Program-made: the position numbers and the translations under genes
Notes under the pieces: model-generated
The model's database searches: none
The model's input: only the letters and a program-made list of their open reading frames with translations
Told to the model about the DNA's origin: nothing
Origin: Pseudomonadota bacterium
GTDB lineage: Bacteria; Pseudomonadota; Gammaproteobacteria; JAKBBU01
Assembly: GCA_021808365.1 (NCBI GenBank)
Contig: JAKBBU010000001.1
Span: 30,615 to 94,614 of the forward strand
DNA length: 64,000 nucleotides
Direction of reading: 5' to 3'
Shown here: in pieces, positions 975-50,964 of the stretch
Position numbering within the stretch: position 1 is the first letter of the stretch
How the letters are laid out: every line of letters starts with the position of its first letter

Positions 975-1090
975 GTAGGTTGGGTTAGCGTACTTGCGTA
1001 ACCCAACAAAATTAAAGATGAAAAATATTGGATTTTATAGGCGGAATGTTGGGTTACGTCCAGCCTATCGGCTGTTCTAACCCAACCTAC
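975..1090. repeat. Family-A palindromic interspersed repeat, full two-module copy (GTAGGTTGGGTTAG...CGTAACCCAACA ... TGTTGGGTTACG...CTAACCCAACCTAC)
   Basis: Internal inverted repeats are visible. Near-identical modules recur at 7891-7932, 11394-11436, 13799-13908, 43143-43230, with partial copies at 28721-28745 and 50926-50943. Confidence 0.8.
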
Positions 1091-1453: not shown

Positions 1454-2113
1454 TCAAAACTCAATCCAAGACTGCCACCCTGCCCTGATTTGTTGTGTGG
1501 TTAGGCATTCATCATCATTAAAGGAAGAAATCCTTTTTGAAAGACTGGATTCCCGCCTCTGCGGGAATGACGCTAAGGAAGAAATCTCTTGTATAAAACT
1601 AGATTTCTGCTGCTGGGACGCGACTGCATAAACTGCCTGAAGTCGAACCACACTACGCCTACTCGCGCTCATTGCAAAGATAGTGATTCGAAAAAAATCT
1701 AAATTTTGTGGCAATGACGACTCAGCATGCAAACACGGATCATGTTCGAACGGTTCAATCACAAAACGAACCTTGATCTTGCCCTGATCCAATGAACATC
1801 TACGACCTAATTTCAGCCACCAAACGACAGATCTATCACGCCAGACTTGAATGGGCTGCATAGCTTGATAGCAATTTGACTTCGTCTTCAACATTGATGC
1901 CACTTGATTTAAAGCATTTTCTGCAGCTCGAAAAACTTCATTTTTTTCATTAAACTGCCCTGCCATTTTAAGTTCCAAGGCGCTGGATATCGATGCCGTC
2001 ATGACAATGGATGTACTTAAAAATAAGAACAATAAGACAATGAATAGAATATTGCCGTGTATACTATTATTGATTAATAACGAAGAAGGCTGCACCAATG
2101 ACACAACACGCAT
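1454..2113 (-). CDS. Hypothetical minor-pilin-like protein (PilX-like), uncertain
   Basis: The ORF lies downstream of and overlaps the pilW-like gene. Its N-terminus is hydrophobic (NILFIVLLFLFLSTSIV) and resembles a pilin-like transmembrane segment. The C-terminal part reads through family-B repeat copy B1 (1545-1571). The start was chosen at the internal Met (MRVV...). Confidence 0.3.
   Translation of the reverse strand: MRVVSLVQPSSLLINNSIHGNILFIVLLFLFLSTSIVMTASISSALELKMAGQFNEKNEVFRAAENALNQVASMLKTKSNCYQAMQPIQVWRDRSVVWWLKLGRRCSLDQGKIKVRFVIEPFEHDPCLHAESSLPQNLDFFRITIFAMSASRRSVVRLQAVYAVASQQQKSSFIQEISSLASFPQRRESSLSKRISSFNDDECLTTQQIRAGWQSWIEF
1545..1571. repeat. Family-B palindromic repeat (CTGGATTCCCGCCTC[T/C]GCGGGAATGAC)
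   Basis: Same element as at 2302-2329 (inverted), 31584-31609, 47521-47557, 56256-56282 and 56531-56557. Confidence 0.8.
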
Positions 2114-2130
2114 TGGCGCAGCCTTCTTCG
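2081..2130. repeat. Family-D hairpin repeat (GAAGGCTGCACCAATG-ACACAACACG-CATTGGCGCAGCCTTC)
   Basis: Perfect inverted repeat with the core GCACCAATG..CACAACACGCATTGGTGC, shared with 18164-18239 and 38141-38224. It is flanked by a further palindrome, ttattgattaataa/ttattaataa. Confidence 0.7.
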
Positions 2131-2133
2131 TTA

Positions 2134-3276
2134 TTAATAAGCAAGATTTCTTGGAGTAAGGATGATGGACCATTCTTTATATAAATATCCTTTTGGATCG
2201 ACAAATTCCTCATTGAGGAAAACATATCGAGTGGTTTGACTTGAAAATCGAAATGGGCTTTTTAATAAAAAATAAAGCGTCAATTGATGATGAGCTATAA
2301 CGTCATTCCTGCGGAGGTGGGAATCCAGTCTTTTAAAAGGGATTTCTTCTTGATGAATTTTCAACGATTCAACATCACTCATCAGCTCACGTTTCTTTTC
2401 ATCTAAATCTTCACGATACAATCCATGAATGGGGAAGCCATCAAGCGTATGTCGACCCGTATCCGCTAAAAAATAATCGCGCTGAACAAAAAGACCGACA
2501 AGCGCATCTTGAGCATATGAAAATCTTAAGTCGTTTGACAAAATAAGATCTTCATAGCTTGATGTTTTTTTGACCGCAACCACTTTAAATAGTTCAGCTT
2601 GGCTACAATCAGAAATAATCCCAATTTTTTCTTTCTCTAAGGGTGAGCCCAATGGAACTCGAATTTTTTTTCCTTTTTGTACAGCTTGTTCAAGCGAAAC
2701 CATCTCCATTGGATCAAGATACCGAATCTCTAAAACATCGCTGTCCTTCAGAGCAATTTTTTGTAAATGAGAAGGCCATTGATTACTTTTATAAATCATC
2801 AGTGCATTACTTTGATTCAATTCATAGCGCGAATCATTGATATTGTTATACACATTAAAACTGGCATCTAATCGTCGACATCCGATAAACCCTGCTTGAC
2901 GAATATCATGTCCAACAAGATGATTTAAAAAACGCCCCTGCTCTTGAAGACGGGCCAGAGCTTCATTTTGACGATCCGTTGCCTTAATGCCCGACCAAAC
3001 CATACCTGCCATTGTGGTGATCATGATCCCTAAAGTGAGTGCGATTAAAACTTCGAGTAACGATTTTCCCGTTTGTTGCTCAAATTGATTTTGAAGAGCC
3101 TGCCCTTCAAGAGTTTTTTGATATGCCCCTTGTTGATTTTTTAAACTTTTCAATTGCAGTTCTGCTAATCCTAAAAGGCCCATTGAAAAAATCAATAAGG
3201 CGATGAGGATCTCAATTAAGCTGAAACCGGATTGAGAGTTGCTGTGTTTTGCCATAGAATCAGCATACCTGATCAT
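2134..3276 (-). CDS. Type IV pilus minor pilin PilW-like protein with an N-terminal PilV-like prepilin segment fused in frame
   Basis: There are two consecutive prepilin-type N-terminal motifs: GFSLIEILIALLIFSMGLLG at residues 17-36 and SLLEVLIALTLGIMITTMAG at residues 72-91. The second is followed by GRFLNHLVGHDIRQAGF, which matches the PilW N-domain. Family-B repeat B2 (2302-2329) is embedded in frame near the C-terminus (FKRLDSHLRRNDV). Confidence 0.55.
   Translation of the reverse strand: MIRYADSMAKHSNSQSGFSLIEILIALLIFSMGLLGLAELQLKSLKNQQGAYQKTLEGQALQNQFEQQTGKSLLEVLIALTLGIMITTMAGMVWSGIKATDRQNEALARLQEQGRFLNHLVGHDIRQAGFIGCRRLDASFNVYNNINDSRYELNQSNALMIYKSNQWPSHLQKIALKDSDVLEIRYLDPMEMVSLEQAVQKGKKIRVPLGSPLEKEKIGIISDCSQAELFKVVAVKKTSSYEDLILSNDLRFSYAQDALVGLFVQRDYFLADTGRHTLDGFPIHGLYREDLDEKKRELMSDVESLKIHQEEIPFKRLDSHLRRNDVIAHHQLTLYFLLKSPFRFSSQTTRYVFLNEEFVDPKGYLYKEWSIILTPRNLAY
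2302..2329. repeat. Family-B palindromic repeat, inverted orientation, inside the pilW-like CDS
   Basis: CGTCATTCCTGCGGAGGTGGGAATCCAG is the reverse complement of the family-B consensus. Confidence 0.8.
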
Positions 3277-3658: not shown

Positions 3659-3728
3659 AAACTCGGTTTTTAATTCCTCATTTTAAGGCCACCTTGAAAA
3701 GAGGGAGATTTAGATAACAATTACACCC

Positions 3729-4349: not shown

Positions 4350-4555
4350 AATGACTCATAAAAATTGTAATATGTATCTTTTTTAGTCTAGCACATTTTG
4401 CATCTTTCGTAAAATATTTTATCTTTATTTTTCAAAGAGATAAGTTTTTTTCTCGGAAAATTCCCATTTGCCGTTTTTTCTTACGAGTATAGGATGACAC
4501 CACATAATCAATGCGTTAAGATGCGGGCACATTATAGCATCTGAGGAAGAACTCA

Positions 4556-5878
4556 ATGTCCCATCGCAAAAAACAGAGGATGCCACGCAAAATAAGTTAT
4601 TTTATTGCTCTACTGGGGGTTCTCTTTTATTTTTACGAAACTATTCTTGAACTTGTTCCCAGCACCATTGTTCAAGGCCTCATGCGTAATTTCCATATCA
4701 ATGCCTCAATGATTGGTATCCTTGATACAACTTATTTTGCTGTTTATGCTCTGATGCAAATCCCTGGCGGTTATTTACTGGATCGATTTGGCGCTAAAAA
4801 AATACTGACCCTTGCAGCGCTTTGCTGTTGCTTTGGTCAACTCCTTTTTATCATGACGAACTATTTGAGTATTGCTCTCATTGCCAGAGTGATTATGGGA
4901 TTTGGTGGTGCCTTTGGTCTAATGGGTGCAATGTATCTTATTAATAAATATATTGCGAGACCTTATCTTGGTTTTGCACTGGGTCTTGCTATTCTTTTTG
5001 GGTTGAGCGGTGGTCTTTTCTCCGCACCCCTCACCGCTTTGGAAGAAAGCTATGGTTGGTCATTTAGTCTCTTGCTTTTGGCCTTCGTCGCAGGTCTGTT
5101 GGCTATCATTTTTCGATTATTTCTGACTGACCCAGGTCGGCCTTCTGATACTCCTTTTTATCATGATTTACTCGCAAATCTCAAACAACTCTTAAACTAT
5201 CGTGCACTCTGGCCGATTGCGATCTACGGAGGATTAATTTATATCCCGACAGGTACTTTAGCCAATTTGTGGGGTATTGAATATTTAAAAGTATATTATC
5301 AGGGTGATCCTGCGATTCAAGCGGCAAAAATGAATGGACTGATCTTCTTAGGTTGGATTGTTGGCAGCCCCTTTGTTGGATTAATTTCAGATCGACTCAA
5401 AGAACGTCGGCGTGTTGTGCTTGCTGGCGGTGTTGGGCTTTTCCTCTCTTTACTTTTAATATCGCAAGATACGCATCTTTTGGTTTCGGAAATGTTTGCT
5501 TTAATGTTTACCGTGGGATTTTTTTCAAGTGCGAGTGGTTTAACTTTTGCCATGGGTTGTGAAAGCGTTCCCAAGGTCAAGGGGGGTATGGCGGTAGGGT
5601 TTGTCAATATGATGGCGATTTTGCCAACAATCATTATTTCGCCTCTATTTGGCGTTATACTCGATCAAGGTTGGGCTAGCCAAATGTTACATGGTGCAAA
5701 AATTTATCCCCTGCACGCTTATCAAAATGCATTTATCTTAGAATATGGTCTTGTTTTTGTGGCTTTGTTGGTGGGTTATTTTTTAATGCCGGAGACACTC
5801 GCTGGCCGTTCCCGCAGGGGCGGGACTGCTGACATTTACTCTCCTGGCTGCAAAAAAGGTAAAATCGGCACAAATTGA
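4556..5878 (+). CDS. Major facilitator superfamily transporter
   Basis: About 12 hydrophobic helices are present, including an MFS signature region LDRFGAKK between TM2 and TM3. Confidence 0.75.
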   Translation: MSHRKKQRMPRKISYFIALLGVLFYFYETILELVPSTIVQGLMRNFHINASMIGILDTTYFAVYALMQIPGGYLLDRFGAKKILTLAALCCCFGQLLFIMTNYLSIALIARVIMGFGGAFGLMGAMYLINKYIARPYLGFALGLAILFGLSGGLFSAPLTALEESYGWSFSLLLLAFVAGLLAIIFRLFLTDPGRPSDTPFYHDLLANLKQLLNYRALWPIAIYGGLIYIPTGTLANLWGIEYLKVYYQGDPAIQAAKMNGLIFLGWIVGSPFVGLISDRLKERRRVVLAGGVGLFLSLLLISQDTHLLVSEMFALMFTVGFFSSASGLTFAMGCESVPKVKGGMAVGFVNMMAILPTIIISPLFGVILDQGWASQMLHGAKIYPLHAYQNAFILEYGLVFVALLVGYFLMPETLAGRSRRGGTADIYSPGCKKGKIGTN

Positions 5879-5937
5879 CAATCCTTACGTGGATTCACAT
5901 CAACACAGCACCAGCCTGGAAATTTTTACTGACCCCA

Positions 5938-7845
5938 TTACTTTCTTGTAATTTTTATCTTCGCATGACTGACGGTGTCCAATGAATAGATGTCATAGTC
6001 CAAGGATCCCATGGCTTTTTCTAGTTGAGCTTGCAATGCCGGTGTAGGTACATCTTTAGGATCAGCAGGAACCAATCGAATCAATTGTAAAAGAACATTG
6101 TCTCCATCAGGCAATGCAAATGCAGCAGCCGATACCGGTATTTTTGTTGAGGGTGGAGGCAATGTGAACCCCTCATTTACGATCACTGTATTCACACCGG
6201 CTTTATTGCGTGAAGCATCCACCACATTATAAGCACTTAAGCCATTTTGTTTGGCTAACTGTGCTAAGGGCTGGCCTTTTTGAAGTTGAGTAAGCAATTG
6301 TTTCGCTAAAACTTGGGCTTTTCCACTTGCAGCCTCTTGCGTTAAATTAGAGCGGATCTGAGGTGCGACCTCTGTAAAGGGAAGCACAGCAGAAGGCTGA
6401 TGTTGTTTAACACGAAGGATCACCACTGTTTCGGGATCCAATTGAATCGAATCACTATTATTACCTTGAGCCAACACACTGTTATTAAATGCAGCGGAAT
6501 AAATTTTAGGGTTTGCTGCAATCCCATCTTTTGCACCACTGCGGCTAAATAGAGGCGTTGATTGGATTTGCAACCCAAGTGTTTTTGCAGCAATAGAAAG
6601 ATCCGTTGGATTTTCATAGGCTAAATTAGCAAGTTGATCGCTTTGGTCGGCAAAAAGGCTTTCCGCTTTTTGTCGGGCTAATAAAGTTGTAATTTTCGGA
6701 GTTGCTTGATTCAAGGGGATAATTTGTGAGGGTTTAACCGCCAACAATTTGATGATATCAAAGCCATATTGCGTCCGAATAGGTGCAGAAATCGGTGTTG
6801 TCATCGATAAACTTTGAACGGTTTCACCGAAAGTGCCCTTAAGCTGTCCTGCAGAAATCCACCCAATGCTACCGCCTTTTTTATTCGACAGTGTATCATC
6901 AGAGTCTTTCAACGCCAATTTAGAAAAGTCAGCACCTTGTTTAAGTTGTGCAGCGATTGTATTGACTTTAGTTTGTGCTGCGGCAATTTGAGCGGCAGTG
7001 GCATCTTTAGGGAGCTGTACGAGAATATGGGCAATGTCCTTTTGTTCAGGTAATGTAAACATGGAAAGATTATCTTGATAAAATTGTTTGATTTGTTCAT
7101 CGCTAGGATGAATGTTTTGAGTAAGTTGAGTCAGTGATAATTCGACATAATCAATACTAACTTGTTCTTTGCTTTTAAAAGCATCCATATGATTTTGGTA
7201 ATAAGTTTTTACAACATCATCGGGAATAGAAACAGATTTCACAAAACGGGATGCGGGCACAATGATATAAGAGAAATCACGTTTTTGATGCATGAGCGTA
7301 GAAGTGCTACTAAGTTCATTGGGTAACACAAAAGTGGTATTTGTATAGGCGGATTGTACTTGGCTGATCAACATGATGTTTTGAATATCGTGGATCAATT
7401 GCGTGGTTGTCATTTGTTGTGCGTTAAGGGCTTGGTCGAAACGTTCCTTTGAGAACTGGCCGTGTTCTTGAAAAGCAGGTACGGTTTCTATGACATAATT
7501 AATTTGGGTTTGGCCAACGCGGTAGCCTTGTTTTCGAGCTGCATCGCCGAGAGCTTGGGTGGAAATCATTTGTTTAAGTAGGGTTTCGCGCAAATAGTTG
7601 AGATAGCCGGGACTTTGTGGGAATTGATTACCCATTTGTGCTTGTTGTTGGTCGACAAGGCGCCGAAAAGCACGATTAAATTGAACTTGATTGATCACTT
7701 GGCCATTCACCTTAGCTACAACAGCGTTTTGGGCTGCAGTACCAAAGTAATTGTGAATTCCCCAGAGTGCGAAGGTGACGGAAATAACGATGACGATGAG
7801 CCAGGTCAGCCAGCCCTTGGAACGATCGTGAATGTTTTGTAACAT
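5938..7845 (-). CDS. ppiD: Periplasmic chaperone / peptidyl-prolyl isomerase PpiD
   Basis: The N-terminus MLQNIHDRSKGWLTWLIVIVISVTFALWG is a PpiD-type membrane anchor, followed by a SurA-like region and a parvulin-like region. The hupB - ppiD neighbourhood is conserved, as in E. coli. Confidence 0.8.
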   Translation of the reverse strand: MLQNIHDRSKGWLTWLIVIVISVTFALWGIHNYFGTAAQNAVVAKVNGQVINQVQFNRAFRRLVDQQQAQMGNQFPQSPGYLNYLRETLLKQMISTQALGDAARKQGYRVGQTQINYVIETVPAFQEHGQFSKERFDQALNAQQMTTTQLIHDIQNIMLISQVQSAYTNTTFVLPNELSSTSTLMHQKRDFSYIIVPASRFVKSVSIPDDVVKTYYQNHMDAFKSKEQVSIDYVELSLTQLTQNIHPSDEQIKQFYQDNLSMFTLPEQKDIAHILVQLPKDATAAQIAAAQTKVNTIAAQLKQGADFSKLALKDSDDTLSNKKGGSIGWISAGQLKGTFGETVQSLSMTTPISAPIRTQYGFDIIKLLAVKPSQIIPLNQATPKITTLLARQKAESLFADQSDQLANLAYENPTDLSIAAKTLGLQIQSTPLFSRSGAKDGIAANPKIYSAAFNNSVLAQGNNSDSIQLDPETVVILRVKQHQPSAVLPFTEVAPQIRSNLTQEAASGKAQVLAKQLLTQLQKGQPLAQLAKQNGLSAYNVVDASRNKAGVNTVIVNEGFTLPPPSTKIPVSAAAFALPDGDNVLLQLIRLVPADPKDVPTPALQAQLEKAMGSLDYDIYSLDTVSHAKIKITRK

Positions 7846-7890
7846 AAAACGTCCATCTCCGGTGTTATCCCGGGATTTAGATCAAAAAGC

Positions 7891-7932
7891 GTAGGTTGGG
7901 TTAACCCGGCCTAAGCCGGGCGTAACCCAACA
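7891..7932. repeat. Family-A repeat, single module (GTAGGTTGGGTTAACCCGGCCTAAGCCGGGCGTAACCCAACA)
   Basis: Perfect hairpin. It is preceded by a partial family-C motif (gttatcccgggatttag, 7864-7880) and lies 15 nt from the tRNA-Asp 3' end. Confidence 0.75.
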
Positions 7933-7947
7933 ATTCAACGAGCAAAT

Positions 7948-8024
7948 TGGCGGAGTGGACGGGACTCGAACCCGCGACCCCCGGCGTGACAGGCCGGTAT
8001 TCTAACCAACTGAACTACCACTCC
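7948..8024 (-). tRNA. tRNA-Asp (anticodon GTC)
   Basis: The reverse complement reads GGAGTGGTAGTTCAGTTGGTTAGAATACCGGCCTGTCACGCCGGGGGTCGCGGGTTCGAGTCCCGTCCACTCCGCCA, a canonical tRNA-Asp. Confidence 0.9.
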
Positions 8025-10408: not shown

Positions 10409-11236
10409 CTAACAAAAATGAATATGTTCATTCGCGCTGCCATCGGGTTTAAATCGAGGAGGAAATTCACCTAATTGACGTGCTTGTGCGAGGAGTCCAT
10501 CAATGTCGCTTTGAACAAAATCATAGAGCTGCTGATAGCTCTCAATTTCATAGTAAATCGGCTGAAGAATATCGATCCGATAAGGGGTACGAACGGCATT
10601 CAACGGATCAAACGGCCGACGCTCAGGAATATCGCTGGTTACAGAATAAACTGTTTCTGAAGGTGATGATAAAATCCCACCACCATAGGCGCGTGATCCT
10701 TTTTCTGTTTTGATCAAGCCAAATTCAACGGTAAACCAAAAAATACGTTGTAATAAGGGCCAATCTTTTTTATTGCGAGTCAAGACTTTTTGTGCATAGC
10801 CTGCGACAAAATCAGCGTAAGTAGGATCCATCAACATCGGCGCATGGCCAAATAATTCATGAAAAATATCGGGTTCTTGAACGTAATCCAATTCTTCCGG
10901 AATTCGAATGAACGTGGCTGCGGGGAATTGGCGATGCGCCAATAATTGAAAAAAATGTTCATGTGAAATGAGCGCGGGCACCGGAACCACTTCCCAAGCG
11001 GAGGCGGCTCGAAGTGCGCGTGAAACATCAGGTAGTTGAGGGACGGCATCGTGGGTCAGCCCTAGCTTTTCTAATCCTTCAAGATAAGTTGGGCAGGCGT
11101 GTGCTTTGACGATAGGTAGTTGGCGCTCATAGAGTGTTTTCCAGACAGCATTTTCGGTGTCGCTGTAGTTAATAAACCCTTGTTCATTGGGTTGGTGGGC
11201 TTTGTATTTGCTTTGAAATTCACAGTGTTCGTTCAT
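10409..11236 (-). CDS. phhA: Phenylalanine 4-hydroxylase (aromatic amino-acid hydroxylase)
   Basis: The catalytic-domain motifs match bacterial PhhA: PDxxHExxGHxP is present (EPDIFHELFGHAPML), which supplies the iron ligands. Confidence 0.85.
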   Translation of the reverse strand: MNEHCEFQSKYKAHQPNEQGFINYSDTENAVWKTLYERQLPIVKAHACPTYLEGLEKLGLTHDAVPQLPDVSRALRAASAWEVVPVPALISHEHFFQLLAHRQFPAATFIRIPEELDYVQEPDIFHELFGHAPMLMDPTYADFVAGYAQKVLTRNKKDWPLLQRIFWFTVEFGLIKTEKGSRAYGGGILSSPSETVYSVTSDIPERRPFDPLNAVRTPYRIDILQPIYYEIESYQQLYDFVQSDIDGLLAQARQLGEFPPRFKPDGSANEHIHFC

Positions 11237-11393: not shown

Positions 11394-11436
11394 TGTTGGG
11401 TTACGTTCAGCCTTCGGCTGCGCTAACCCAACCTAC
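11394..11436. repeat. Family-A repeat, single module (TGTTGGGTTACGTTCAGCCTTCGGCTGCGCTAACCCAACCTAC)
   Basis: Hairpin located 18 nt upstream of the acyl-CoA dehydrogenase start codon. Confidence 0.75.
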
Positions 11437-12606: not shown

Positions 12607-13794
12607 ATGAAAAATGATGCTAACGATATCGTCATCGTCGCGGCCACTCGTACCGCTATGGGTGGCTTATTGGGTGTTTTCAAAGACGTCACTGCAACAG
12701 CACTGGGCAGCCGAGCTATTGTTGGTGCGCTGGAGCAAACTTTTCTAAAACCCGAAGAGATGGATAGCGCCTTTTTGGGCTGTGTCTTACCTGCAGGCCT
12801 TGGACAAGCGCCTGCCCGGCAAGCGGCATTGGGCGCAAGTCTGCCCTACTCTACTTCAGCACTCACCGTGAATAAAATGTGTGGTTCAGGCATGGCTGCT
12901 GTGATGTTAGCTCACGATGCACTTCGGGTTGGAAGTGCCAACATAGCCATCGCGGGTGGGTTAGAAAGCATGACTCGCGCCCCTTATTTAATTCCCAAAG
13001 CACGTGGAGGATATCGGTTTGGCCATGCTCAAATATTTGATCATATGTTGCTCGATGGACTTGAAGATGCTTACGAAAAAGGCATTTCGATGGGTGTTTT
13101 TGCAGAACGTTGTGCCAGTGATTATGGTTTTTCACGCGAAGTTCAAGATGAGTTTGCTTTAAGATCGCTCATGCGTGCAAAAAAAGCAACGGATGATGGA
13201 ACATTTGCACGAGAAATCACGCCTTTTTTAATTCAATCCTCAGGGATAGAAACAAAAATTGATCAAGATGAAAATGTCTTGCGCGCACAGCCAGATAAAA
13301 TTCCACATCTAAAACCTGCCTTCAAACCCGATGGCACGATCACGGCGGCTAATTCAAGCTCGATTTCAGATGGCGCTGCGGCATTAATTTTGATGCGCCG
13401 GGGCGATGCGGAACAACGCCAACTTAAAATTTTAGCCCGCATTGTCGGCCATACGACGCATGGCGAAAAACCGGATAAATTTCCAATTGCACCCATTGGT
13501 GCGATCAAAAAATTGTATGAAAAAACAGGTTGGGATCCGAAAAGTGTCGATCTCTACGAAATTAATGAAGCATTTGCAGTGGTCACTTTGGCGGCAATGA
13601 ACGATCTTAAACTGGGTGCTGATCAAGTGAATATTCATGGCGGCGCTTGTGTACTGGGTCATCCCATTGGTGCTTCGGGTGCTCGTATTTTAGTCACTTT
13701 ATTGAACGCTCTTCATACGCACAAACTCAAACGCGGCATTGCAAGTTTGTGTATCGGCGGTGGTGAGGCGACGGCGATGGGGATTGAAATATAA
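12607..13794 (+). CDS. Acetyl-CoA C-acyltransferase (thiolase)
   Basis: Thiolase active-site Cys motif NKMCGSGM; C-terminal Cys in CIGGGEATAM. Translationally coupled to the upstream ACAD, whose stop overlaps this ATG. Confidence 0.85.
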   Translation: MKNDANDIVIVAATRTAMGGLLGVFKDVTATALGSRAIVGALEQTFLKPEEMDSAFLGCVLPAGLGQAPARQAALGASLPYSTSALTVNKMCGSGMAAVMLAHDALRVGSANIAIAGGLESMTRAPYLIPKARGGYRFGHAQIFDHMLLDGLEDAYEKGISMGVFAERCASDYGFSREVQDEFALRSLMRAKKATDDGTFAREITPFLIQSSGIETKIDQDENVLRAQPDKIPHLKPAFKPDGTITAANSSSISDGAAALILMRRGDAEQRQLKILARIVGHTTHGEKPDKFPIAPIGAIKKLYEKTGWDPKSVDLYEINEAFAVVTLAAMNDLKLGADQVNIHGGACVLGHPIGASGARILVTLLNALHTHKLKRGIASLCIGGGEATAMGIEI

Positions 13795-13798
13795 ACGT

Positions 13799-13908
13799 GT
13801 AGGTTGGGTTAGTGCAGCCGTTAGGCTGAGCGTAACCCAACAAAAACGCTGCAAAAGAAGGAAATGTTGGGTTACGTCCAGCCTAACGGCTGTTCTAACC
13901 CAACCTAC
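13799..13908. repeat. Family-A repeat, full two-module copy
   Basis: GTAGGTTGGGTTAGTGCAGCCGTTAGGCTGAGCGTAACCCAACA...TGTTGGGTTACGTCCAGCCTAACGGCTGTTCTAACCCAACCTAC. It starts 5 nt after the thiolase stop. Confidence 0.8.
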
Positions 13909-14017
13909 ATTTTTTGACAGTTCATCTAACCTCACAATCACTTCAGTAAATTTGCCATTGAATCTTTTGCATAATTCTGATAACTTCCAAAGGTTGTTAA
14001 CCATCGCCGGACTTTGT

Positions 14018-15058
14018 ATGTCGAAACAAGTAAAAGCCATCGTCGTCTTTGTGCTCTTCGCGCTTCTGCTCATCATCTTGGTCTTCTGGGTCCAGATGCG
14101 CGCAGCAGAAAAAGAAAAAGCAAAGAAACAAATTCCGCCTGCCATCGTCATCACACAACCTGCAAAAACCGAATATTGGCAAAGCAAAGTACAAGCCGTG
14201 GGTACCCTCATGGCCATCCAAGGTGTCACCATCAAATCAACCGTTAATGGCGTCATCACAGGCATTTTTTTTAGATCCGGCCAAAATGTCAAAGCAGGCC
14301 AACCCCTCTTCCAAATTAATCCAGGTGTTGATCGTAACCTTGTCCGCGCCCCGTTTGATGGTCAACTTGGGCTCAAAGAGGTGGATATGGGATCCTATGT
14401 TCGCCCCGGTCTTAAACTGGTTGATATTGAAGATATCAACCCGATGAAGGTACAGTTTTTCGTACCACAAACCTATGTTGGTGGATTATCTCTCGGTCAA
14501 ACGATCACCTTCACTGTGGATGCCTACCCCAATAAAACCTTCACAGGTAAAATTTTCGCCATCGATTCCCAGTTAGATACGGATACCCGTGGACTTGCTG
14601 TTTGGGCGAGCGTTCCTAATATAGACAATGAATTGGTTCCTGGTACCTATGCCAAAGTCACACTCTACACCAGCACTGAAAAACCCGTCGTGGTCGTTCC
14701 TCAAACAGCGATTGGTTATTCGTTTACGGGTAATTTTGTTTACCTTGATGTGAATGGCAAAGCCAAACAAGTACCGATCACCCTCGGTGAGCGTCGAGGA
14801 GATGACATGTCGATCACGAGCGGATTAAAAGCCGGTGATGTGGTTATTGTTGTTGGAACAGGCATGCAAAAATTTGATAATGGGTTCACCCTCTTACCTG
14901 AAGGAACGCCGCAATACCAGCAATTCATTGGTGCAATGAACCAACTCGTCAGCGGTAAAATGACGATGGACCAATTAAAAGCGAAACAAGCGGCAGCAGC
15001 GAAAAAACAACCGCCTGCGATTACACAACCTGCAAGCACAAGTGGCACTACAAAATAA
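14018..15058 (+). CDS. RND efflux periplasmic adaptor (membrane fusion protein), copy 1
   Basis: N-terminal membrane anchor (IVVFVLFALLLIILVFWV), biotinyl/lipoyl-like hairpin motif TGIFFRSGQNVKAGQPLFQINPG, and an Ala/Gln-rich C-terminal tail. The start is placed at the internal ATG after the family-A repeat, because the six-frame ORF reads through the repeat. Confidence 0.8.
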   Translation: MSKQVKAIVVFVLFALLLIILVFWVQMRAAEKEKAKKQIPPAIVITQPAKTEYWQSKVQAVGTLMAIQGVTIKSTVNGVITGIFFRSGQNVKAGQPLFQINPGVDRNLVRAPFDGQLGLKEVDMGSYVRPGLKLVDIEDINPMKVQFFVPQTYVGGLSLGQTITFTVDAYPNKTFTGKIFAIDSQLDTDTRGLAVWASVPNIDNELVPGTYAKVTLYTSTEKPVVVVPQTAIGYSFTGNFVYLDVNGKAKQVPITLGERRGDDMSITSGLKAGDVVIVVGTGMQKFDNGFTLLPEGTPQYQQFIGAMNQLVSGKMTMDQLKAKQAAAAKKQPPAITQPASTSGTTK

Positions 15059-15091: not shown

Positions 15092-18000
15092 ATGCATTTT
15101 ACAGACATCTTTATTAAACGCCCCGTTTTTGCGAGTGCACTCAGCTTGATGATCTTCCTCATCGGTACTGTGGCGATGTTTAGCATGCCTGTGCAGCAAT
15201 TTCCGAATATTCAATCCAGTAATATTTCTGTGACCACGAACTACCCTGGTGCAAGCCCTGATTTAATGGCGGGTTTTATTACCACACCGATTGAAAATGC
15301 CATGTCGGGTATCGACAATATTGATTATATGTACAGTACCTCGAGTGAGGGCCAGAGCGTCTTGAATATTGTCCTTGATGTGGGTGCTGATCCGGACGTT
15401 GCACTAACCAATGTGCAATCGAAAGTGACACAGGTTCAATACCAATTCCCTGCGGCTGCGCAAAATCCGATGATCGCAAAAAGCAATGCCACAAGTAATC
15501 CAACCGTGTTTATTGCGTTCCAAAGCGATACCATGACACAGGAACAAATCACTGACTATCTGTTGCGTGTGGTGCAACCCCAAATCCAAACGCTGAGCGG
15601 CGTGAGTCAGGCTCCTATTTTTGGTGAGCGTGAATATGCCATGCGTTTGAATATGGATCCCGGCTTGATGGCGGCCCATAACATCACACCCAATGATGTC
15701 TTTAACGCGATGAATCAACAAAACGTTCAGGCGGCTGCCGGTACCATTGAAAATCAAACTCAAGCCTTTAACGTCTACGCGAGCACGGACATCAATAACG
15801 AAGATCAATTTAACAATATGATCATCGCGAAAAACAATAACACGTTTATTCACATGCGCGATGTGGGTCAAGCCCTCTTAGCTGCGCAAAGTTATAGCAC
15901 GTACGGTAATGTGGATGGAAAACCGACGATTACCATTGGCGTGATCCCAACGGCTACGGCGAACCCTCTTGCGGTTTCAAAGGAGGTTGAAGCGCTTCTT
16001 CCTGTCTTGAAAAAAGAAATGCCTACGACACTCAATGCGAGCATTACTTATGATAGCTCGATTTTTATCCAAGTCGCATTAGATGAAGTCGTCAAAACGA
16101 TTATTGAAGCTGTGATCTTTGTGATCGCCATTATGATGCTCTTCCTAGGATCCATGCGTGCCGTGATGATCCCCTTGGTTACGATTCCACTTTCGATTGT
16201 CGGTGTTTGCGGTGTCATGTTGGCGCTGGGTTATAGTATCAACACAATCACCCTCCTCGCCTTCGTATTAGCTGTTGGACTCGTGGTGGATGATGCGATC
16301 GTCGTGGTTGAAAATGTGTTCCGTCATATAGAAGAAGGCTCAACGCCTTATCAAGCAGCTCTCGTGGGTACGCGAGAAATTGGTTTTGCTGTCATCGCGA
16401 TGACATTCACCTTGGCTGCAGTGTATGCGCCGATTGGTTTCTCAGCGGGGTTGACCGGTATTTTATTTCAGGAATTTGCATTCACGCTCTCTGCTGCTGT
16501 GATCGTTTCAGGTTTTATTGCCTTAACTTTGTCACCGATGATGTGTTCCAAACTTCTCAAACAAGAATCATCCAAGTTTACGAAATATGTCGATCACCAA
16601 TTTGAAAAAATCAAAGTACGTTACGATAAATTAATTCATGCAGTCATTGCAGACTATCGCCCCTATATCGTTGCGGGTGCCACCGTTATTTTATTCTTAG
16701 GTGCTTATTTATTTACTCATATTTCCAGCGAATTAGCACCTACAGAAGATCAGGGTGTGATCTTAACCTATGATGAAAACCCATCACAGGCAAGTATCCC
16801 TTATATCATTAAATATACGAATCAAATGCAAAGCATCTATGAGAGCGTTCCTGAAATGGCGCATTACATCCTCGTGGTTGGTTTCCCCACTAATGCAGGT
16901 ATTACTGTTTTGAGTTTGAAAGATTGGAATGTCCGCAAACGAACCGCCATGGATATTGCCTCTGATTTAGCAGGACGTCTCTGGGCTATTCCAGGTCTTA
17001 AAATCTTCGGCTTCCCACCCATGCCTCTTCCAGGTGCAAGCTTTATGCCGATTCAATTTATTTTGAAAACTTCGGGCACAAATACGACGGAACGTCTCTA
17101 TGCAGCTGGTTTGAAATTGCAAGCGGCGGCAGAAAAATATCCAGGGTTTCAGCATGTCGATCTCGATATGAAACTCAATATGCCTCAAGTGAATGTCAAT
17201 GTGGATCGTAACAAAGCTGCTGATTTGGGGATCCCCATGCAAAATATTGCTGCGGCCCTGGCTAGTTTGTATGGAACACCGGAGCAAAATCAATTTTCGA
17301 TGGATCAACGCAGCTATTGGGTGATCCCTGAATTAGGCAGTAATTTTGATTATCAAAGTAATCCAGAAGATTTGATGAATATTTATCTGCGCGGTAGCAG
17401 CGGCAAACTTATTGCCATGTCTAATGTTGTCGGCTTAACAGAGTCCGTAGTACCTTTGAGTATTAACCATTTCCAACAATTACCCTCAATCACGCTCAAT
17501 GGAACATTAGCCGCGGGTTATACCATGGGTGAGGATCTCACCTACCTTAACAAATTTGTGGCAGAACATTTGCCTCATAATTTGATGGTTGACTATGAAG
17601 GAACATCACGGCAGTACTACCAATCTGCGGCGGCGATGGAACAAGCCTTTATCTTTGCAATCTTGTTTATTTTCCTCGTGTTGGCCGCACAATTTGAAAG
17701 CTATCGTGATCCTTTAATCGTGATGACAACCGTTCCTCTTTCATTAACGGGTGCTTTATTCACACTTATGATGGCCGGTGGTTCGATCAACATTTATAGT
17801 GAAATTGGTTTAATTACCTTAGTGGGTTTGATCAGTAAACACGGTATTTTGATCGTAGAATTTGCGAATCAAATTCAGGAGCATACTGGCAAGAGCATAA
17901 AAGAGGCAGTTATCGAATCCGCAGGTATGCGTCTTCGTCCCATTTTAATGACAACGGGTGCGATGGTATTAGCGGCCTTTCCTCTGGCGCTGGCAACGGG

Positions 18001-18151
18001 AGCAAGCTCCGTTTCACGTAATGATTTAGGCTGGGTTATTTTTGGCGGTATGATGTTGGGAACTTGTTTCTCACTCTTGGTTGTTCCTACCGTCTATACC
18101 TTGCTGGCCAGTGTGAAAGTAAAACCGCAAGATGCGGATGAATTGCATTAG
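15092..18151 (+). CDS. RND-family multidrug efflux permease (AcrB/AcrD/MexB-like)
   Basis: 1019 aa with 12 predicted transmembrane segments and two large periplasmic loops. Conserved RND motifs are present (…GLVVDDAIVVVENV…). Confidence 0.9.
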   Translation: MHFTDIFIKRPVFASALSLMIFLIGTVAMFSMPVQQFPNIQSSNISVTTNYPGASPDLMAGFITTPIENAMSGIDNIDYMYSTSSEGQSVLNIVLDVGADPDVALTNVQSKVTQVQYQFPAAAQNPMIAKSNATSNPTVFIAFQSDTMTQEQITDYLLRVVQPQIQTLSGVSQAPIFGEREYAMRLNMDPGLMAAHNITPNDVFNAMNQQNVQAAAGTIENQTQAFNVYASTDINNEDQFNNMIIAKNNNTFIHMRDVGQALLAAQSYSTYGNVDGKPTITIGVIPTATANPLAVSKEVEALLPVLKKEMPTTLNASITYDSSIFIQVALDEVVKTIIEAVIFVIAIMMLFLGSMRAVMIPLVTIPLSIVGVCGVMLALGYSINTITLLAFVLAVGLVVDDAIVVVENVFRHIEEGSTPYQAALVGTREIGFAVIAMTFTLAAVYAPIGFSAGLTGILFQEFAFTLSAAVIVSGFIALTLSPMMCSKLLKQESSKFTKYVDHQFEKIKVRYDKLIHAVIADYRPYIVAGATVILFLGAYLFTHISSELAPTEDQGVILTYDENPSQASIPYIIKYTNQMQSIYESVPEMAHYILVVGFPTNAGITVLSLKDWNVRKRTAMDIASDLAGRLWAIPGLKIFGFPPMPLPGASFMPIQFILKTSGTNTTERLYAAGLKLQAAAEKYPGFQHVDLDMKLNMPQVNVNVDRNKAADLGIPMQNIAAALASLYGTPEQNQFSMDQRSYWVIPELGSNFDYQSNPEDLMNIYLRGSSGKLIAMSNVVGLTESVVPLSINHFQQLPSITLNGTLAAGYTMGEDLTYLNKFVAEHLPHNLMVDYEGTSRQYYQSAAAMEQAFIFAILFIFLVLAAQFESYRDPLIVMTTVPLSLTGALFTLMMAGGSINIYSEIGLITLVGLISKHGILIVEFANQIQEHTGKSIKEAVIESAGMRLRPILMTTGAMVLAAFPLALATGASSVSRNDLGWVIFGGMMLGTCFSLLVVPTVYTLLASVKVKPQDADELH

Positions 18152-18163: not shown

Positions 18164-18239
18164 AGAGACTTCGTCACAAGGAAGAGTGCACCAATGCCAC
18201 AACACGCATTGGTGCACTCTTCCTTGTGACGAAGTCTCT
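18164..18239. repeat. Family-D hairpin repeat (AGAGACTTCGTCACAAGGAAGAGTGCACCAATGCCACAACACGCATTGGTGCACTCTTCCTTGTGACGAAGTCTCT)
   Basis: Perfect 33-bp-arm inverted repeat starting 13 nt after the RND gene stop. Same core as 2081-2130 and 38141-38224. Confidence 0.8.
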
Positions 18240-19277: not shown

Positions 19278-19289
19278 TAACGAACGTCC

Positions 19290-19356
19290 GTCATCCCGGA
19301 ATTTAGTCGTTCTTGCATGTACTCACGCTTAGAACGACTAAATTCCGGGATGACGG
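19290..19356. repeat. Family-C palindromic repeat (GTCATCCCGGAATTTAGTCGTTCT...AGAACGACTAAATTCCGGGATGAC)
   Basis: Long inverted repeat. A second full copy lies at 56146-56200. Partial copies are at 950-975, 7864-7880, 25801-25822 and 56286-56302, and a variant at 27313-27355. Confidence 0.8.
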
Positions 19357-28697: not shown

Positions 28698-28753
28698 ATA
28701 ATTCCTTGATATACATACAGGCTAACCCAACCTGCCCCAACCTACATAAATTT

Positions 28754-34697: not shown

Positions 34698-37600
34698 ATG
34701 AAAACAAGACTCTCGCTTTCCCCTATCCTTCCCCAAAAAGCGGGTCACATCATCAAACAAGCAGGTTTTGTAGGAAGTAGTATTGGACTGGCCATGGCGC
34801 AGGCAGCCGATCAACATCCTGGTGTCACCGTCGTGATTACACCGGATAATCGTAGCGCACAGCAATTAGCGTCAGAACTTCTCTTTTTCTATCCTCAAGA
34901 CGATCTGACCTTGCTCAATTTTCCGGATTGGGAAACCCTGCCCTATGATATTTTTTCACCCCATCAAGATTTAGTGTCTGAACGGATCCACACCCTCGCC
35001 CGCCTGTCCTCGCTCTCAAAAGGCGTGTTGATTGTTCCGATCAAAACCTTACTCCAACGATTGGCACCGAAAGAATTCATCGGTGCTCATCATCTCGATG
35101 TGAAAGTGGGTGATCGCATCGACTTAATACGGTTTAAACGCGAATTAGCAAAATGTGCATATCGATCTGTTAATGAAGTCGTAGAGCACAGCGAATATGC
35201 TGTGCGAGGTTCGATCATCGATCTCTTCCCCATGGGCAGTCCACATCCTTATCGGATTGATCTGTTCGATGATGAGATTGAAAGCATTCGAATTTTTGAT
35301 CCTGAAACCCAACGCACCGCGCACAATGTTGATCACATCAGCTTATTGCCCGCGCATGAATTTCCACTGACTGAAGAATCCATCGCAACATTTCGCCAAA
35401 ATTTTCGAGCACGGTTTACGGGAAATCCCTTGTCCTGCCCACTTTATCAAGATGTGAGTCAAGGATTGTGTCCTTCGGGCATCGAATATTATCTGCCCTT
35501 ATTTTTTGATCACACGCTCACGCTGTTTGATTATTTACCCGAAGATTGTTTATTGCTCAGCATGAATGGTTTGATGGAGGCCGCCACAAGTTTTTGGCAA
35601 GAAATTAAAGAGCGTTACGAGCAACGCGCGCATGACATTACGCGCCCTATTTTAAAACCGGACGAATTATATATCACGGTTGATGCTTGCATGGGGCGAT
35701 TGCGTGATTTTCCACAATTGAAATTGCTACAGGAACGCGATCACGATCAAGCCCTCAATGTCAATATTCGTGAATTACCGAATGTGCTCATTGAGCACCG
35801 CAGTTCACATCCACTCTCAGCGCTTGATCAATTCCTCAAGACGCATTCAGGCCGTATTTTATTTGTCGCCGAATCACGCGGGCGACGCGAAGCCTTATTG
35901 GATTTATTAAAAACGATCCATATTCAACCTGAAAGCTATGAGCAGTGGGCAACATTTTTAGACGCTGATGTGAAAACAGGCATTATTGTTGCACCGCTGG
36001 ATCGCGGATTATGGTTGAATGATCCCAATTTGATTGTGCTCACAGAATCACAGCTTTTCGGTGAACACACCGTTTCGCAAGAACGCCGAAAACGCCAACA
36101 CACCGACGTTGAGATGCTGATCCGTAATTTAGCAGAATTGTCGATCGGCGATCCCGTCGTACATATTGATCATGGCGTGGGCCGTTATTTGGGACTGCAA
36201 ACTTTAAAAATTCAGGATTATCCTGAAGAATTTTTACAATTAGAATATGCCGGTGGCGATAAACTTTATGTACCGGTTTCTTCGTTAGATCTGATCAGCC
36301 GCTACAGCGGCAGCGATCCTGAACATGCACCCTTGCATCGTTTGGGAACAGACCAATGGCAGAAAGCTAAACGCAAAGCTGCCGAACAAGCCGAAGATGT
36401 GGCGGCTGAATTATTGGATTTGTATGCCCAACGTGCCGCTCGAAAAGGTCATGCCTTTCCACTGCCGGATGAGCAATACTTTATATTTTCAGCGGGATTT
36501 CCTTATGAAGAAACGCCTGATCAACAATCCGCGATTGCGGCCGTCATCAAAGATTTAGTTTCAGAACAACCCATGGATCGGCTCATTTGCGGCGACGTGG
36601 GTTTTGGAAAAACAGAAGTCGCGCTGCGTGCGGCCTTTTTAACCGTGCAGGGCGGCAAACAAGTGGCCATCTTGGTGCCAACAACCTTGCTGGCTCAACA
36701 ACATTACGAATCGTTTTGCGATCGATTCGCCGATTGGCCGGTGAGTGTTGAATTATTATCGCGCTTTCGAACGAAGAAAGAACAAACTGATGTCATTGCC
36801 CGTTTAAAATCAGGCAAAGTTGATATTCTGATCGGCACACATGCCCTCCTCCAATCGCAAATTTGTTTTAATGATTTAGGCCTCTTGATCATCGATGAAG
36901 AACATCGTTTTGGTGTCAATCAAAAAGAACGCTTAAAAAGCCTGCGCGCTGAAGTGGATATTTTAACCCTCACCGCGACGCCAATCCCGAGAACCTTAAA
37001 CATGGCGATGTCAGGTCTGCGCGAATTATCGATCATCGCGACACCGCCTGCACGCCGTTTATCGATTAAAACCTTTGTGCATGAACATCAACCCGCTTTA
37101 ATCCGTGAAGCGGTTTTGCGGGAAATTTTGCGCGGTGGTCAAGTGTATTATTTACATAATCGTGTTGAAACCATCGAAAAAACCGCTGAAAAATTACGCG
37201 AATGGGTCCCTGAAGCGCGGATCCGTGTCGGCCATGGTCAATTGCATGAACGTGAACTTGAGTCCGTCATGTCTGATTTTTATCACCAGCGTTTTAATGT
37301 GCTAGTTTGCACGACGATCATTGAAACGGGAATTGACGTTCCCACAGCAAATACGATCATCATGGATCGCGCAGATTTGTTTGGATTTGCGCAATTACAT
37401 CAATTGCGAGGCCGCGTCGGTCGCTCGCATCATCAAGCTTATGCTTATTTATTGACTCCTGATCCTAAAACATTGACGAAAGATGCCGAAAAGCGCCTCG
37501 ATGCATTTTCAGCCTTGGAAGATTTAGGGATTGGATTTACATTGGCCACGCACGACATGGAAATTCGCGGTGCAGGTGAATTGCTGGGTGAAAATCAAAG

Positions 37601-38144
37601 TGGACATGTTCATGCGATCGGTTTTTCTTTGTATATGGAATTGCTGGAACGTGCAATTGCCATGATTAAATCCGGTGTTACGCCTGCGCTACAACAACCT
37701 TTACGCCGTGGTGTAGAAATTGATCTGAAAGTCTGCGCGCTGATCCGTGAAGATTATATGCCCGATGTGCACCATCGTTTAGTGTTTTATAAACAATTAG
37801 CCAGCGCCGTTGATTTGAAAAAAATGCGTGATCTGCAAGTTGAAATGATTGATCGTTTCGGTTTATTACCGGATGTCACCAAACATCTTTTTCGTATCGC
37901 CGAACTAAAACTTCATGCAAAACCGCTCGGCATTAAAAAAATCGAAGCTGGCCCTCAAGGCGGTTCCATCGAATTCGATGAAAAACCCAATATTAATTTT
38001 GATAAGTTAATGTCTTGGATCCAACAAAGCCCTCAAAAATATAAATTCAATGGGAAGAATCGATTGGCGTTTACCTTGCCCAGCGAGACCTTTGAAAAGC
38101 GCGTCGAATTGGTTGAGGGGTTGTTGGGTGAGTTGCATTTCTGA
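34698..38144 (+). CDS. mfd: Transcription-repair coupling factor
   Basis: 1148 aa with a UvrB-homology region, an RNA polymerase-interacting domain, a DEAD/DEAH-box helicase (GDVGFGKTEVA, DEEH) and a C-terminal TRCF domain. Confidence 0.95.
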   Translation: MKTRLSLSPILPQKAGHIIKQAGFVGSSIGLAMAQAADQHPGVTVVITPDNRSAQQLASELLFFYPQDDLTLLNFPDWETLPYDIFSPHQDLVSERIHTLARLSSLSKGVLIVPIKTLLQRLAPKEFIGAHHLDVKVGDRIDLIRFKRELAKCAYRSVNEVVEHSEYAVRGSIIDLFPMGSPHPYRIDLFDDEIESIRIFDPETQRTAHNVDHISLLPAHEFPLTEESIATFRQNFRARFTGNPLSCPLYQDVSQGLCPSGIEYYLPLFFDHTLTLFDYLPEDCLLLSMNGLMEAATSFWQEIKERYEQRAHDITRPILKPDELYITVDACMGRLRDFPQLKLLQERDHDQALNVNIRELPNVLIEHRSSHPLSALDQFLKTHSGRILFVAESRGRREALLDLLKTIHIQPESYEQWATFLDADVKTGIIVAPLDRGLWLNDPNLIVLTESQLFGEHTVSQERRKRQHTDVEMLIRNLAELSIGDPVVHIDHGVGRYLGLQTLKIQDYPEEFLQLEYAGGDKLYVPVSSLDLISRYSGSDPEHAPLHRLGTDQWQKAKRKAAEQAEDVAAELLDLYAQRAARKGHAFPLPDEQYFIFSAGFPYEETPDQQSAIAAVIKDLVSEQPMDRLICGDVGFGKTEVALRAAFLTVQGGKQVAILVPTTLLAQQHYESFCDRFADWPVSVELLSRFRTKKEQTDVIARLKSGKVDILIGTHALLQSQICFNDLGLLIIDEEHRFGVNQKERLKSLRAEVDILTLTATPIPRTLNMAMSGLRELSIIATPPARRLSIKTFVHEHQPALIREAVLREILRGGQVYYLHNRVETIEKTAEKLREWVPEARIRVGHGQLHERELESVMSDFYHQRFNVLVCTTIIETGIDVPTANTIIMDRADLFGFAQLHQLRGRVGRSHHQAYAYLLTPDPKTLTKDAEKRLDAFSALEDLGIGFTLATHDMEIRGAGELLGENQSGHVHAIGFSLYMELLERAIAMIKSGVTPALQQPLRRGVEIDLKVCALIREDYMPDVHHRLVFYKQLASAVDLKKMRDLQVEMIDRFGLLPDVTKHLFRIAELKLHAKPLGIKKIEAGPQGGSIEFDEKPNINFDKLMSWIQQSPQKYKFNGKNRLAFTLPSETFEKRVELVEGLLGELHF

Positions 38145-43142: not shown

Positions 43143-43230
43143 AGTAGGTTGGGTTAGAACAGCCGACAGGCTGAACGTAACCCAACAAGCTCTGCAAAAA
43201 ACAAAAATGTTGGGTTACGCACACCCTTCG
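43143..43230. repeat. Family-A repeat, full first module plus truncated second module
   Basis: GTAGGTTGGGTTAGAACAGCCGACAGGCTGAACGTAACCCAACA...TGTTGGGTTACGCACACCCTTCGGGC. It is followed at 43234-43266 by a separate perfect hairpin (GACGATTCTAAGTTGGCAACTTAGAATCGTC) overlapping the argH stop. Confidence 0.75.
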
Positions 43231-43243
43231 GGCTTTGACGATT

Positions 43244-50904: not shown

Positions 50905-50964
50905 TGCTATACTTCAAAAAGGCTGCGCTAACCCAACCTACGTCCTTATGAAAGAGCAAGCTTC

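Follow-up and report, generated by a model that had tools for sequence, protein, structure and literature searches.

Probable GTAG-tagged REP elements and REPINs at gene boundaries of a gammaproteobacterial genome

The 64,000-nucleotide stretch analysed here (hereafter the window; contig JAKBBU010000001.1 of assembly GCA_021808365.1) carries a dispersed palindromic repeat, family A. The repeat units are most probably repetitive extragenic palindromes (REPs) tagged with GTAG, and the two-module copies, inverted doublets with GTAG facing outward, are most probably REPINs (REP doublets forming hairpins). Short hairpin repeats of this kind are ordinary 'junk-like' DNA of bacteria, spread through genomes by a domesticated transposase. 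The evidence comes from the anatomy of the module, its distribution, its doublets, covariation in its stem, its linkage in other genomes to genes for REP-associated tyrosine transposases (RAYTs), and the lack of target-site duplications. A preliminary description of the stretch had called the elements 'MITE/REP-like', but overlooked the meaning of the GTAG tag and the transposase partner.

Copies and module anatomy

Family A is represented in the window by seven complete and three partial modules, spread over seven intergenic sites (Table 1). On the two strands, GTAGGTTGGGTTAG at up to two mismatches gives 10 strand-matches, against 0.14 expected from shuffles, and the hairpin pattern GGGTTA-N3-30-TAACCC gives 7 matches, against 0.04 expected. 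A profile built from the complete modules recovers the identical set with nhmmer, and no further copy in the window. The seven sites are those listed in the preliminary description; all are present, with borders within 1–5 nt of ours. Among the partial units, the second module of doublet 3 matches the profile at positions 24–50 only (E 2e-4). In the remnant at 28720–28745, the unit's own 3' arm is tandemly duplicated over 10 nt (CCCAACCTGC / CCCAACCTAC).

The repeat families in the window are 45–53 nt long, and the likeness among copies ends at the element borders. In particular, 1045–1090 and 13863–13908 (repeat family D4) are identical at 45 of 46 positions, and their flanks are unrelated. 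The copies are therefore independent and do not belong to one duplicated segment. Nor is the family confined to the window, since one further complete module lies about 7 kb past its right end in the same genome (L175:2047–2089), which makes seven sites in 64 kb and one in the next 9 kb. Confinement to the window and descent from a single segment, the two situations that the preliminary description had set against independent insertion, are thus not what is found.

Table 1 Modules, doublet spacers and remnants of family A in the window
Feature	Position	Strand	Remarks
REP module, left half of doublet 1	975..1007	+	5' GTAG, short upper stem (GCGTACTTGCG)
Spacer of doublet 1	1008..1047	.	A/T-rich, 40 nt
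REP module, right half of doublet 1	1048..1090	-	GTAG on minus strand at 1087-1090
Single REP module	7891..7931	+	Upper stem CCCGGC/GCCGGG
Single REP module	11395..11436	-	Motif, profile match, fold
REP module, left half of doublet 2	13799..13841	+	Motif, profile match, fold
Spacer of doublet 2	13842..13865	.	A-rich, 24 nt
REP module, right half of doublet 2	13866..13908	-	Followed by TTTTTT
Degenerate REP remnant (CTAACCCAACCTGC + CCCAACCTAC)	28720..28745	-	Weak nhmmer match, E 0.25
REP module, left half of doublet 3	43144..43186	+	Motif, profile match, fold
Spacer of doublet 3	43187..43208	.	A-rich, 22 nt
Truncated second module of doublet 3 (GTTGGGTTACGCACACCC...)	43209..43231	-	Closing arm and CTAC missing
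Half module (GGCTGCGCTAACCCAACCTAC)	50921..50943	-	nhmmer E 1.6e-5

When folded as single-stranded DNA, all seven complete modules leave the 5' GTAG unpaired. The tag is followed by a lower stem of 9 bp, GTTGGGTTA/TAACCCAAC, which is invariant among the window copies. Above the lower stem lies a small, irregular junction with A or AG on the 5' side and CGT on the 3' side, and the module is topped by an upper stem of 3–6 bp and a loop of 3–4 nt, both variable in sequence. The free energies range from −9.7 to −16.8 kcal/mol; the upper value belongs to the module at 975..1007, which keeps the unpaired GTAG and the 9-bp lower stem. The modules had been described as perfect hairpins with a variable loop. 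Neither description fits the folds: GTAG is an unpaired tail, the junction (A/G ... CGT) interrupts the stem, and the supposed loop is a base-paired upper stem closed by only 3–4 nt. Most window copies share the upper stem CAGCC-N3-4-GGCTG, which occurs in no other sampled genome, a pattern that fits amplification inside this lineage.

Each doublet, 88–116 bp in size, consists of two inverted modules with GTAG outward. Instead of the roughly 25 nt reported before, the spacers measure 40, 24 and 22 nt; they are A-rich in doublets 2 and 3 and A/T-rich in doublet 1 (Table 1). As a whole, the 13799–13908 doublet can also fold into one long hairpin, with a free energy of −47.1 kcal/mol as DNA (z −11.9) and −82.2 kcal/mol as RNA (z −15.1).

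No direct repeats of 6 nt or more are present within 45 nt of either end at the four complete sites tested, and no terminal inverted repeats are found beyond the REPs themselves. These results bear on the possibility that the doublets are classical miniature inverted-repeat transposable elements (MITEs), that is, deletion derivatives of a DDE-type insertion sequence (IS) with terminal inverted repeats and target-site duplications, mobilised in trans. The doublets are small and have inverted ends, as MITEs do, and the Coxiella element QMITE2, which holds a REP starting with GTAGGTTGGG, is reported with direct repeats (PMC5896051, PMC2817692). However, besides the lack of direct repeats, the doublets are shorter than QMITE2 and occur alongside singlets; each inverted 'end' is a complete, GTAG-tagged hairpin that folds by itself and is also found singly; and the sole gene repeatedly flanked by the repeat encodes a Y1/HUH transposase of the RAYT type (see below), not a DDE transposase. 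We consider this origin very unlikely and reject a classical MITE on the lack of target-site duplications at the four sites tested. What holds of the term 'MITE/REP-like' is its REP half, in view of the GTAG tag, the imperfect palindrome, the outward doublets, the extragenic positions, and a core that flanks RAYT genes elsewhere.

RAYT genes and the same core in other genomes

To look for a partner enzyme, an E. coli TnpA-REP sequence was used as bait, and the matches were validated afterwards. Among the open reading frames (ORFs) of the fetched loci, two lie directly beside REPs (L011 and L060). The L011 ORF scores 158.6 bits on the NCBIfam model NF047646, 'REP-associated tyrosine transposase' (cut-off 80), and matches the structure of E. 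coli TnpA-REP (PDB 4ER8) with an E value of 9e-36; on these two matches the ORFs are assigned to the RAYT family. Pfam Y1_Tnp gives no match at E ≤0.01 for the partial RAYT ORFs. In L011 the RAYT stop codon overlaps the GTAG of a REPIN, which is present at the 3' end only. In L060 the gene is accompanied by one full REP and one fragment.

The association extends to further members of the clade. The L011-type RAYT has 7155 homologues at E ≤1e-20, and the seven that were looked up all sit among REPs of the GTAGGTTGGG type. REPs flank the RAYT on both sides, in opposite orientations, in L124 (Legionella fallonii), L125/L126, L128, L129, and L169 (a Methylomonas contig). In L170, a Legionella contig with SidE/SidJ genes, two REPs lie upstream of the RAYT and a hairpin without GTAG lies downstream; in L174, the contig of a RAYT named Nodosilinea sp., the upstream REP copy is degenerate. 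Altogether, GTAGGTTGGG-type REPs are found beside the gene at nine of nine RAYT loci (L011, L060, L124, L125, L128, L129, L169, L170, and L174), among them a cyanobacterial-type contig. Six loci have REPs on both sides; in L011, L060, and L170 one side carries a partial copy or none. The HUH motif is kept in all aligned RAYTs, and the YxxNPVKHG tyrosine motif in all but one truncated variant.

In L011 (Methyloglobulus), the RAYT and its REPIN are bracketed by an inverted pair of another hairpin repeat (GGACGGGGTTTRYAACCCTGT; 6046–6078 and 6915–6947). A second repeat family may be nested around this REPtron, the unit of RAYT gene and REPs.

The core itself is widespread. An exact-match scan of one genome per species with the pattern GTAGGTTGGGTTA-N5-30-TAACCCAAC finds it in at least 119 genome stretches from several phyla. 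Isolates among the matches listed are three Dyella species, Marinobacterium, Eikenella halliae, Iodobacter, Methylocucumis, Nodosilinea LEGE 06152, and Floridaenema. Uncultured members among the matches listed, on long contigs or chromosomes, are Prochloron, Nitrospirales, Zixibacteria, Deltaproteobacteria, Hyphomicrobiaceae, Gallionellaceae, Thiomargarita, Legionella, and Coxiellaceae.

From these 119 loci 188 modules were collected. The commonest form, GTAGGTTGGGTT-AGC...CGT-AACCCAAC, accounts for 114 of them, a share to be read with the search pattern in mind, which itself fixes GTAG and most of the lower stem. The base before GTAG is a pyrimidine in 86% of modules, and an A follows the last C in 76%. 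Paired modules are overwhelmingly head-to-head with GTAG outward (43 pairs, against 2 tail-to-tail and 2 tandem), with spacers of 9–55 nt, and 184 of the 188 modules are extragenic. Copies that were found independently of the pattern, beside RAYT genes, have the ninth pair of the lower stem altered on both sides (GTTGGGTTG...CAACCCAAC).

The inner part of the module is free in sequence but not in structure. It occurs as 123 different sequences, 71 of which fold better than at least 95% of their own shuffles. In the gap-free subset, 99.4% of upper-stem cells are paired, against 91.5% in shuffles, and two-sided changes are seen in 13 cells, against 4.7 expected, a count reached by none of 500 shuffles; two upper-stem pairs alternate among CG, GC, and UA. 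In addition, lineages differ in the dominant upper stem, which is GCGCAGCG in Dyella and GCGATAGCG in several Methylococcaceae and cyanobacteria. Such lineage-specific stems are what amplification within each genome would produce.

Two observations concern where the core resides. It is present in 8 of 72,556 plasmid records and 37 of 2.9 million viral contigs, and with so few records a plasmid or phage was rejected as its main home. The sole intragenic case among the 188 modules is L073, from a Methylomicrobium metagenome-assembled genome (MAG), where two REPINs (4016–4099 and 5508–5620) lie in frame within a 1271-aa Eco57I/N6-methylase ORF (3083–6898, minus strand). The ORF is unbroken by either, and one REPIN falls within a stretched Eco57I domain match.

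A single REPIN–RAYT lineage, with the core GTAGGTTGGGTTAGC...CGTAACCCAAC and a RAYT clade of 55–85% protein identity, may conceivably be common, nearly unchanged, to several phyla or classes, though we hold this to be rather doubtful. The groups concerned include Gamma-, Beta-, and Alphaproteobacteria, deltaproteobacterial lineages (for example Desulfocapsa), Nitrospirae, Zixibacteria, and Cyanobacteria. If true, it would point either to repeated horizontal spread of a system that is usually described as vertical or to a very strong long-term constraint on recognition between enzyme and DNA, and the lineage would be one that can also sit in frame within large genes, as in L073.

E. coli TnpA-REP offers a model for how the repeat might move. 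According to published work (PMC3479197, PMC8266576), this enzyme binds the folded, single-stranded REP and cuts and rejoins nearby; it makes heavy contacts with GTAG and reads the lower stem and the mid-stem bulge, and the upper half of the REP has a structural role only. The fixed GTAG and lower stem, the near-fixed junction, and the free but paired upper stem of family A, together with the homologous RAYT clade, lead us to infer the same mechanism. By this analogy, an HUH/Y1 enzyme present in single copy and akin to E. coli TnpA-REP (a group-2-like RAYT) would bind the folded single-stranded REP, read GTAG, the lower stem, and the junction, and cut and rejoin DNA next to the REP. The reaction would move or copy a REP pair without target-site duplication, and the sequence of the upper stem-loop would be free provided that pairing is kept. 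The REPIN then corresponds to the two REPs of a REPtron minus the gene, as proposed for Pseudomonas (PMC3116915). A RAYT presumably acts, or once acted, on the copies in the genome of the window.

A number of observations weigh against this identification. No RAYT is found in six frames of the window, either with the bait or with a profile of seven RAYTs (best E 1.2), and none in the 9 kb beyond it. The genome's own RAYT was not located, as protein, cluster, and contig look-ups lead to other organisms only. The RAYT genes of L011 and L060 are both frameshifted. The dinucleotide CT, at which E. coli TnpA-REP cleaves, precedes GTAG in only 9 of the 188 modules, and the invariance of GTAG and the lower stem across genomes is partly built into the scan pattern. 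Within the window just one pair of copies is near-identical, and truncation affects three of the ten units; this may be an old population in decay and not an active one. At the thiolase locus, where doublet 2 lies, all contigs carrying the locus are 99.96–100% identical across it and no presence/absence polymorphism is seen among them; thiolase identity falls to 71% and 68% in the next nearest relatives.

Over 36.7 kb, the contigs of the two nearest relatives (L167 and L168) are free of family A copies. They do not provide true empty sites, since different genes follow thiolase and precede the acyl-CoA dehydrogenase gene in them. Five candidates for the RAYT of the window genome (P0147, P0192, P0179, P0271, and P0269) were rejected, all being from other organisms.

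Gene context and roles at the RNA level

All seven sites fall within the 10.1% of the window that is intergenic (P ~1e-7). Two of the regions are convergent, four co-directional, and one divergent, a distribution that matches the one reported for REPs (PMC3733652). Doublet 1 lies between a gene for an RRM-type RNA-binding protein and the 3' end of tRNA-Arg(CCT) (1103–1178, minus strand), from which it is 12 nt away. The single module at 7891–7931 lies 16 nt past the 3' end of tRNA-Asp (7948–8024, minus strand) and upstream of the start of a ppiD-like gene (7845, minus strand). The other single module, at 11395–11436, occupies the divergent region between phhA (10409–11236, minus strand) and the acyl-CoA dehydrogenase gene, 18 nt before the ATG at 11455. 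Doublet 2 begins 4 nt after the thiolase stop codon (13792–13794) and is followed by T6. Doublet 3 is just downstream of the argH stop codon (43244–43246, minus strand). The remnant at 28720–28745 is situated between folP (28754–29581, minus strand) and glmM (27348–28697, minus strand), and the half module at 50921–50943 between a DsrE-family gene (50548–50904, plus strand) and a GGDEF/EAL gene (50965, plus strand).

The preliminary description had reported elements immediately after the thiolase and argH stop codons and within 20 nt of the acyl-CoA dehydrogenase start, and the distances above agree with it. It had also ascribed artefactual N-terminal extensions to ORFs that read through the elements; ORF 13739..15058 is such a case, the gene being called from the equivalent of position 14018.

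Such positions raise the possibility that the hairpins are host signals, namely terminators, 3'-end protectors, or processing sites of mRNA or tRNA, kept by selection and served by a shared protein or RNase partner rather than spread by transposition. Every copy is at a gene boundary, the RNA folds are very stable, and doublet 2, so close to the thiolase stop codon, has its T6 tract. All three tRNA transcription units in 73 kb of this genome, tRNA-Arg (1103–1178), tRNA-Val plus tRNA-Asp (7948–8024), and tRNA-Thr (L175:2118–2193), have a family A REP within 12–28 nt of the 3' end. Moreover, E. coli REPs are reported to influence mRNA turnover (PMC3479197). On the other side, a downstream U-run is lacking at most copies; T-runs are seen as T6 after 13866–13908 and as TTTT after 43144–43186 read on the minus strand. 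A scan of the window for the intrinsic-terminator consensus picked none of the copies. The copy at 11395–11436 is in a divergent promoter or 5' region, orientation relative to transcription is mixed, and the tRNA association is not seen in other genomes: in the 119 other loci one of six tRNAs is near a copy, which lies upstream, and a general preference for positions downstream of tRNAs was rejected. A local regulatory origin would also leave unexplained why the same 30-nt sequence is found beside RAYT genes in several phyla. As the primary identity of the repeats, a host signal is therefore quite unlikely. It is compatible with REP identity as a secondary, exapted role, and such a role at the RNA level is plausible at gene ends, where the hairpins, like those of E. 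coli REPs, may form 3'-end barriers or terminators.

Rfam covariance models give no REP match in the window; only three tRNAs and a 6S RNA reach the gathering score. The 6S RNA gene is at 55199–55381 on the minus strand (RF00013, 59.5 bits, gathering score 46.4).

Related systems, further repeats and significance

Judged by sequence, the closest published relative of family A appears to be the REP of Coxiella burnetii, GTAGGTTGGGCTGAGCTTGCGAAGCCCAAC (GTAGGTTGGGCTGAGC...GAAGCCCAAC), listed with its RAYT by Nunvar 2010 (PMC2817692). The two share the first ten bases, GTAGGTTGGG, and the closing CCCAAC, as well as a lower stem, a GC-flanked inner part, and a loop. Coxiella has a cognate RAYT (YP_001425023) and belongs to Legionellales, the order to which the window organism may also belong. 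The families differ at lower-stem positions 7–9 (GGGCTG...AGCCC in Coxiella, GGGTTA...TAACCC in the window). In addition, the Coxiella REP lies inside a MITE of 150–190 bp (QMITE2) with direct repeats of 7–11 nt and is a target of IS1111 (PMC5896051), whereas neither such repeats nor an IS is seen here.

The Coxiella case suggests another way to read the repeats, as targets of a different enzyme, either landing sites of the IS110/IS1111 family or attC-like integron sites. The related GTAG REP is indeed an insertion target of IS1111 (PMC5896051), and GTTGGGT and ACCCAAC of family A fit GTTRRRY and RYYYAAC. However, the motifs stand in the module in the order GTTRRRY, then RYYYAAC, the reverse of attC, and the seven sites, flanked by housekeeping genes, have no integrase, IS110-family gene, or cassette array. 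An attC site was rejected on the reversed order (GTTGGGT ... ACCCAAC) and the dispersed context without integrase. If an IS targeted the repeats, this would be a further use made of a REP and not a different identity. We regard this reading as extremely unlikely.

With E. coli REPs and bacterial interspersed mosaic elements (BIMEs), the REPs of family A share the 5' GTAG, the imperfect palindrome, the mid-stem irregularity, and an upper half that is only structural (PMC3479197, PMC8266576). They also share the inverted pairs, the extragenic positions, and a homologous partner enzyme, as shown by the match to 4ER8. The differences are in the stem sequence, which is GCCGGATG... in E. coli, in the linkers, which in BIMEs are of defined types with integration host factor (IHF) sites and in the window are simply A-rich, and in the cleavage dinucleotide CT, which is not enriched before GTAG in the sample of 188 modules.

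Pseudomonas REPINs (Bertels & Rainey 2011, PMC3116915) likewise consist of two inverted REPs that are separated by a short spacer and form one long hairpin, and the doublet is read there as a non-autonomous unit matching the two REPs that flank a RAYT gene. Pseudomonas REPs, in contrast, are shorter, near-perfect palindromes served by group 3 RAYTs, whereas family A is bulged and E. coli-like. By enzyme and stem, family A is of the E. coli (group 2) type and not of the Pseudomonas (group 3) type.

More broadly, family A belongs with the GTAG-tagged REPs that Di Nocera et al. 2013 (PMC3733652) treat as a super-family of 24 families, with head-to-head dimers and REPtrons. The points of likeness are the tag, stems of 6–13 bp, GC-flanked loops able to pair, a predominance of head-to-head dimers 20–100 bp apart, copies between unidirectional and convergent genes with occasional intragenic ones, and families common to distant species. 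Legionella is not mentioned in that paper. The core of family A is matched neither in its text and supplements (the consensus figure not being covered) nor in RepRanger 2025, and an exact-sequence search of the literature gave only chance matches in unrelated papers.

Three further repeats occur in the window. A second palindrome family is tagged with CGTC, CGTCATTCCCGC-N4-GCGGGAAT(CCAG), with 11 strand-matches against 0 expected; its copies are at 1545–1572, 2301–2324, 31583–31610, 47522–47549, 56256–56283, and 56531–56558. It fits the CGTC-tagged super-family of REPs (Di Nocera 2013, PMC3733652), which has no known transposase. Some copies lie inside listed ORFs without a Pfam match (for example 1454..2173), and these ORFs may be spurious. 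A short repeat, CGTCATCCCGGGATTTAG, has 7 matches against 0.03 expected, with copies at about 948–966, 7863–7880, 19289–19306, 19338–19355, 23861–23878, 25802–25819, 56135–56152, and 56290–56307. Two of them lie 7–10 nt upstream of the family A REPs at 975 and 7891, suggesting that the two repeats form composite arrangements. The third, a 52-nt palindrome family (D3; ACGAAGAAGGCTGCACCAATG...CATTGGCGCAGCCTTCTTCGT), is found at 2080–2131, 18176–18227, and 38157–38208. Two D3 copies come directly after the ends of long ORFs (15092..18151 and 34698..38144), and the family looks terminator-like.

The gene content gives a hint about the host. The window encodes a 592-aa ankyrin-repeat protein, and the adjoining flank carries a gene for a eukaryote-like Ser/Thr kinase (positions given: 60519–62297 in the window and 10774–12553 in L175/L176). 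Together the two genes suggest an intracellular, Legionellales-like host. The ankyrin gene is in two pieces in a second MAG (GCA_027437435.1), indicating that two closely related strains exist.

For annotation, family A accounts for several artefactual extensions of ORFs and is a marker of gene boundaries; its elements should be masked in this lineage before genes are called. Current understanding of REPs is unchanged, as this is a well-documented case of a known repeat type; the only mildly unusual features are how widely the identical core is spread across phyla and how tightly it is paired with one RAYT clade. For the biology of the group, a Legionellales-like lineage joins the known hosts of bulged REPs of the E. 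coli type. The family also provides a clean natural data set on recognition by the transposase. In all copies collected, GTAG, the lower stem, and the junction are fixed, with GTAG and most of the lower stem set by the search pattern in the other genomes, and the paired upper stem is free; this is the pattern predicted by SELEX work in E. coli. Finally, the near-identity of the core across phyla could serve to test horizontal movement of REPIN–RAYT systems.

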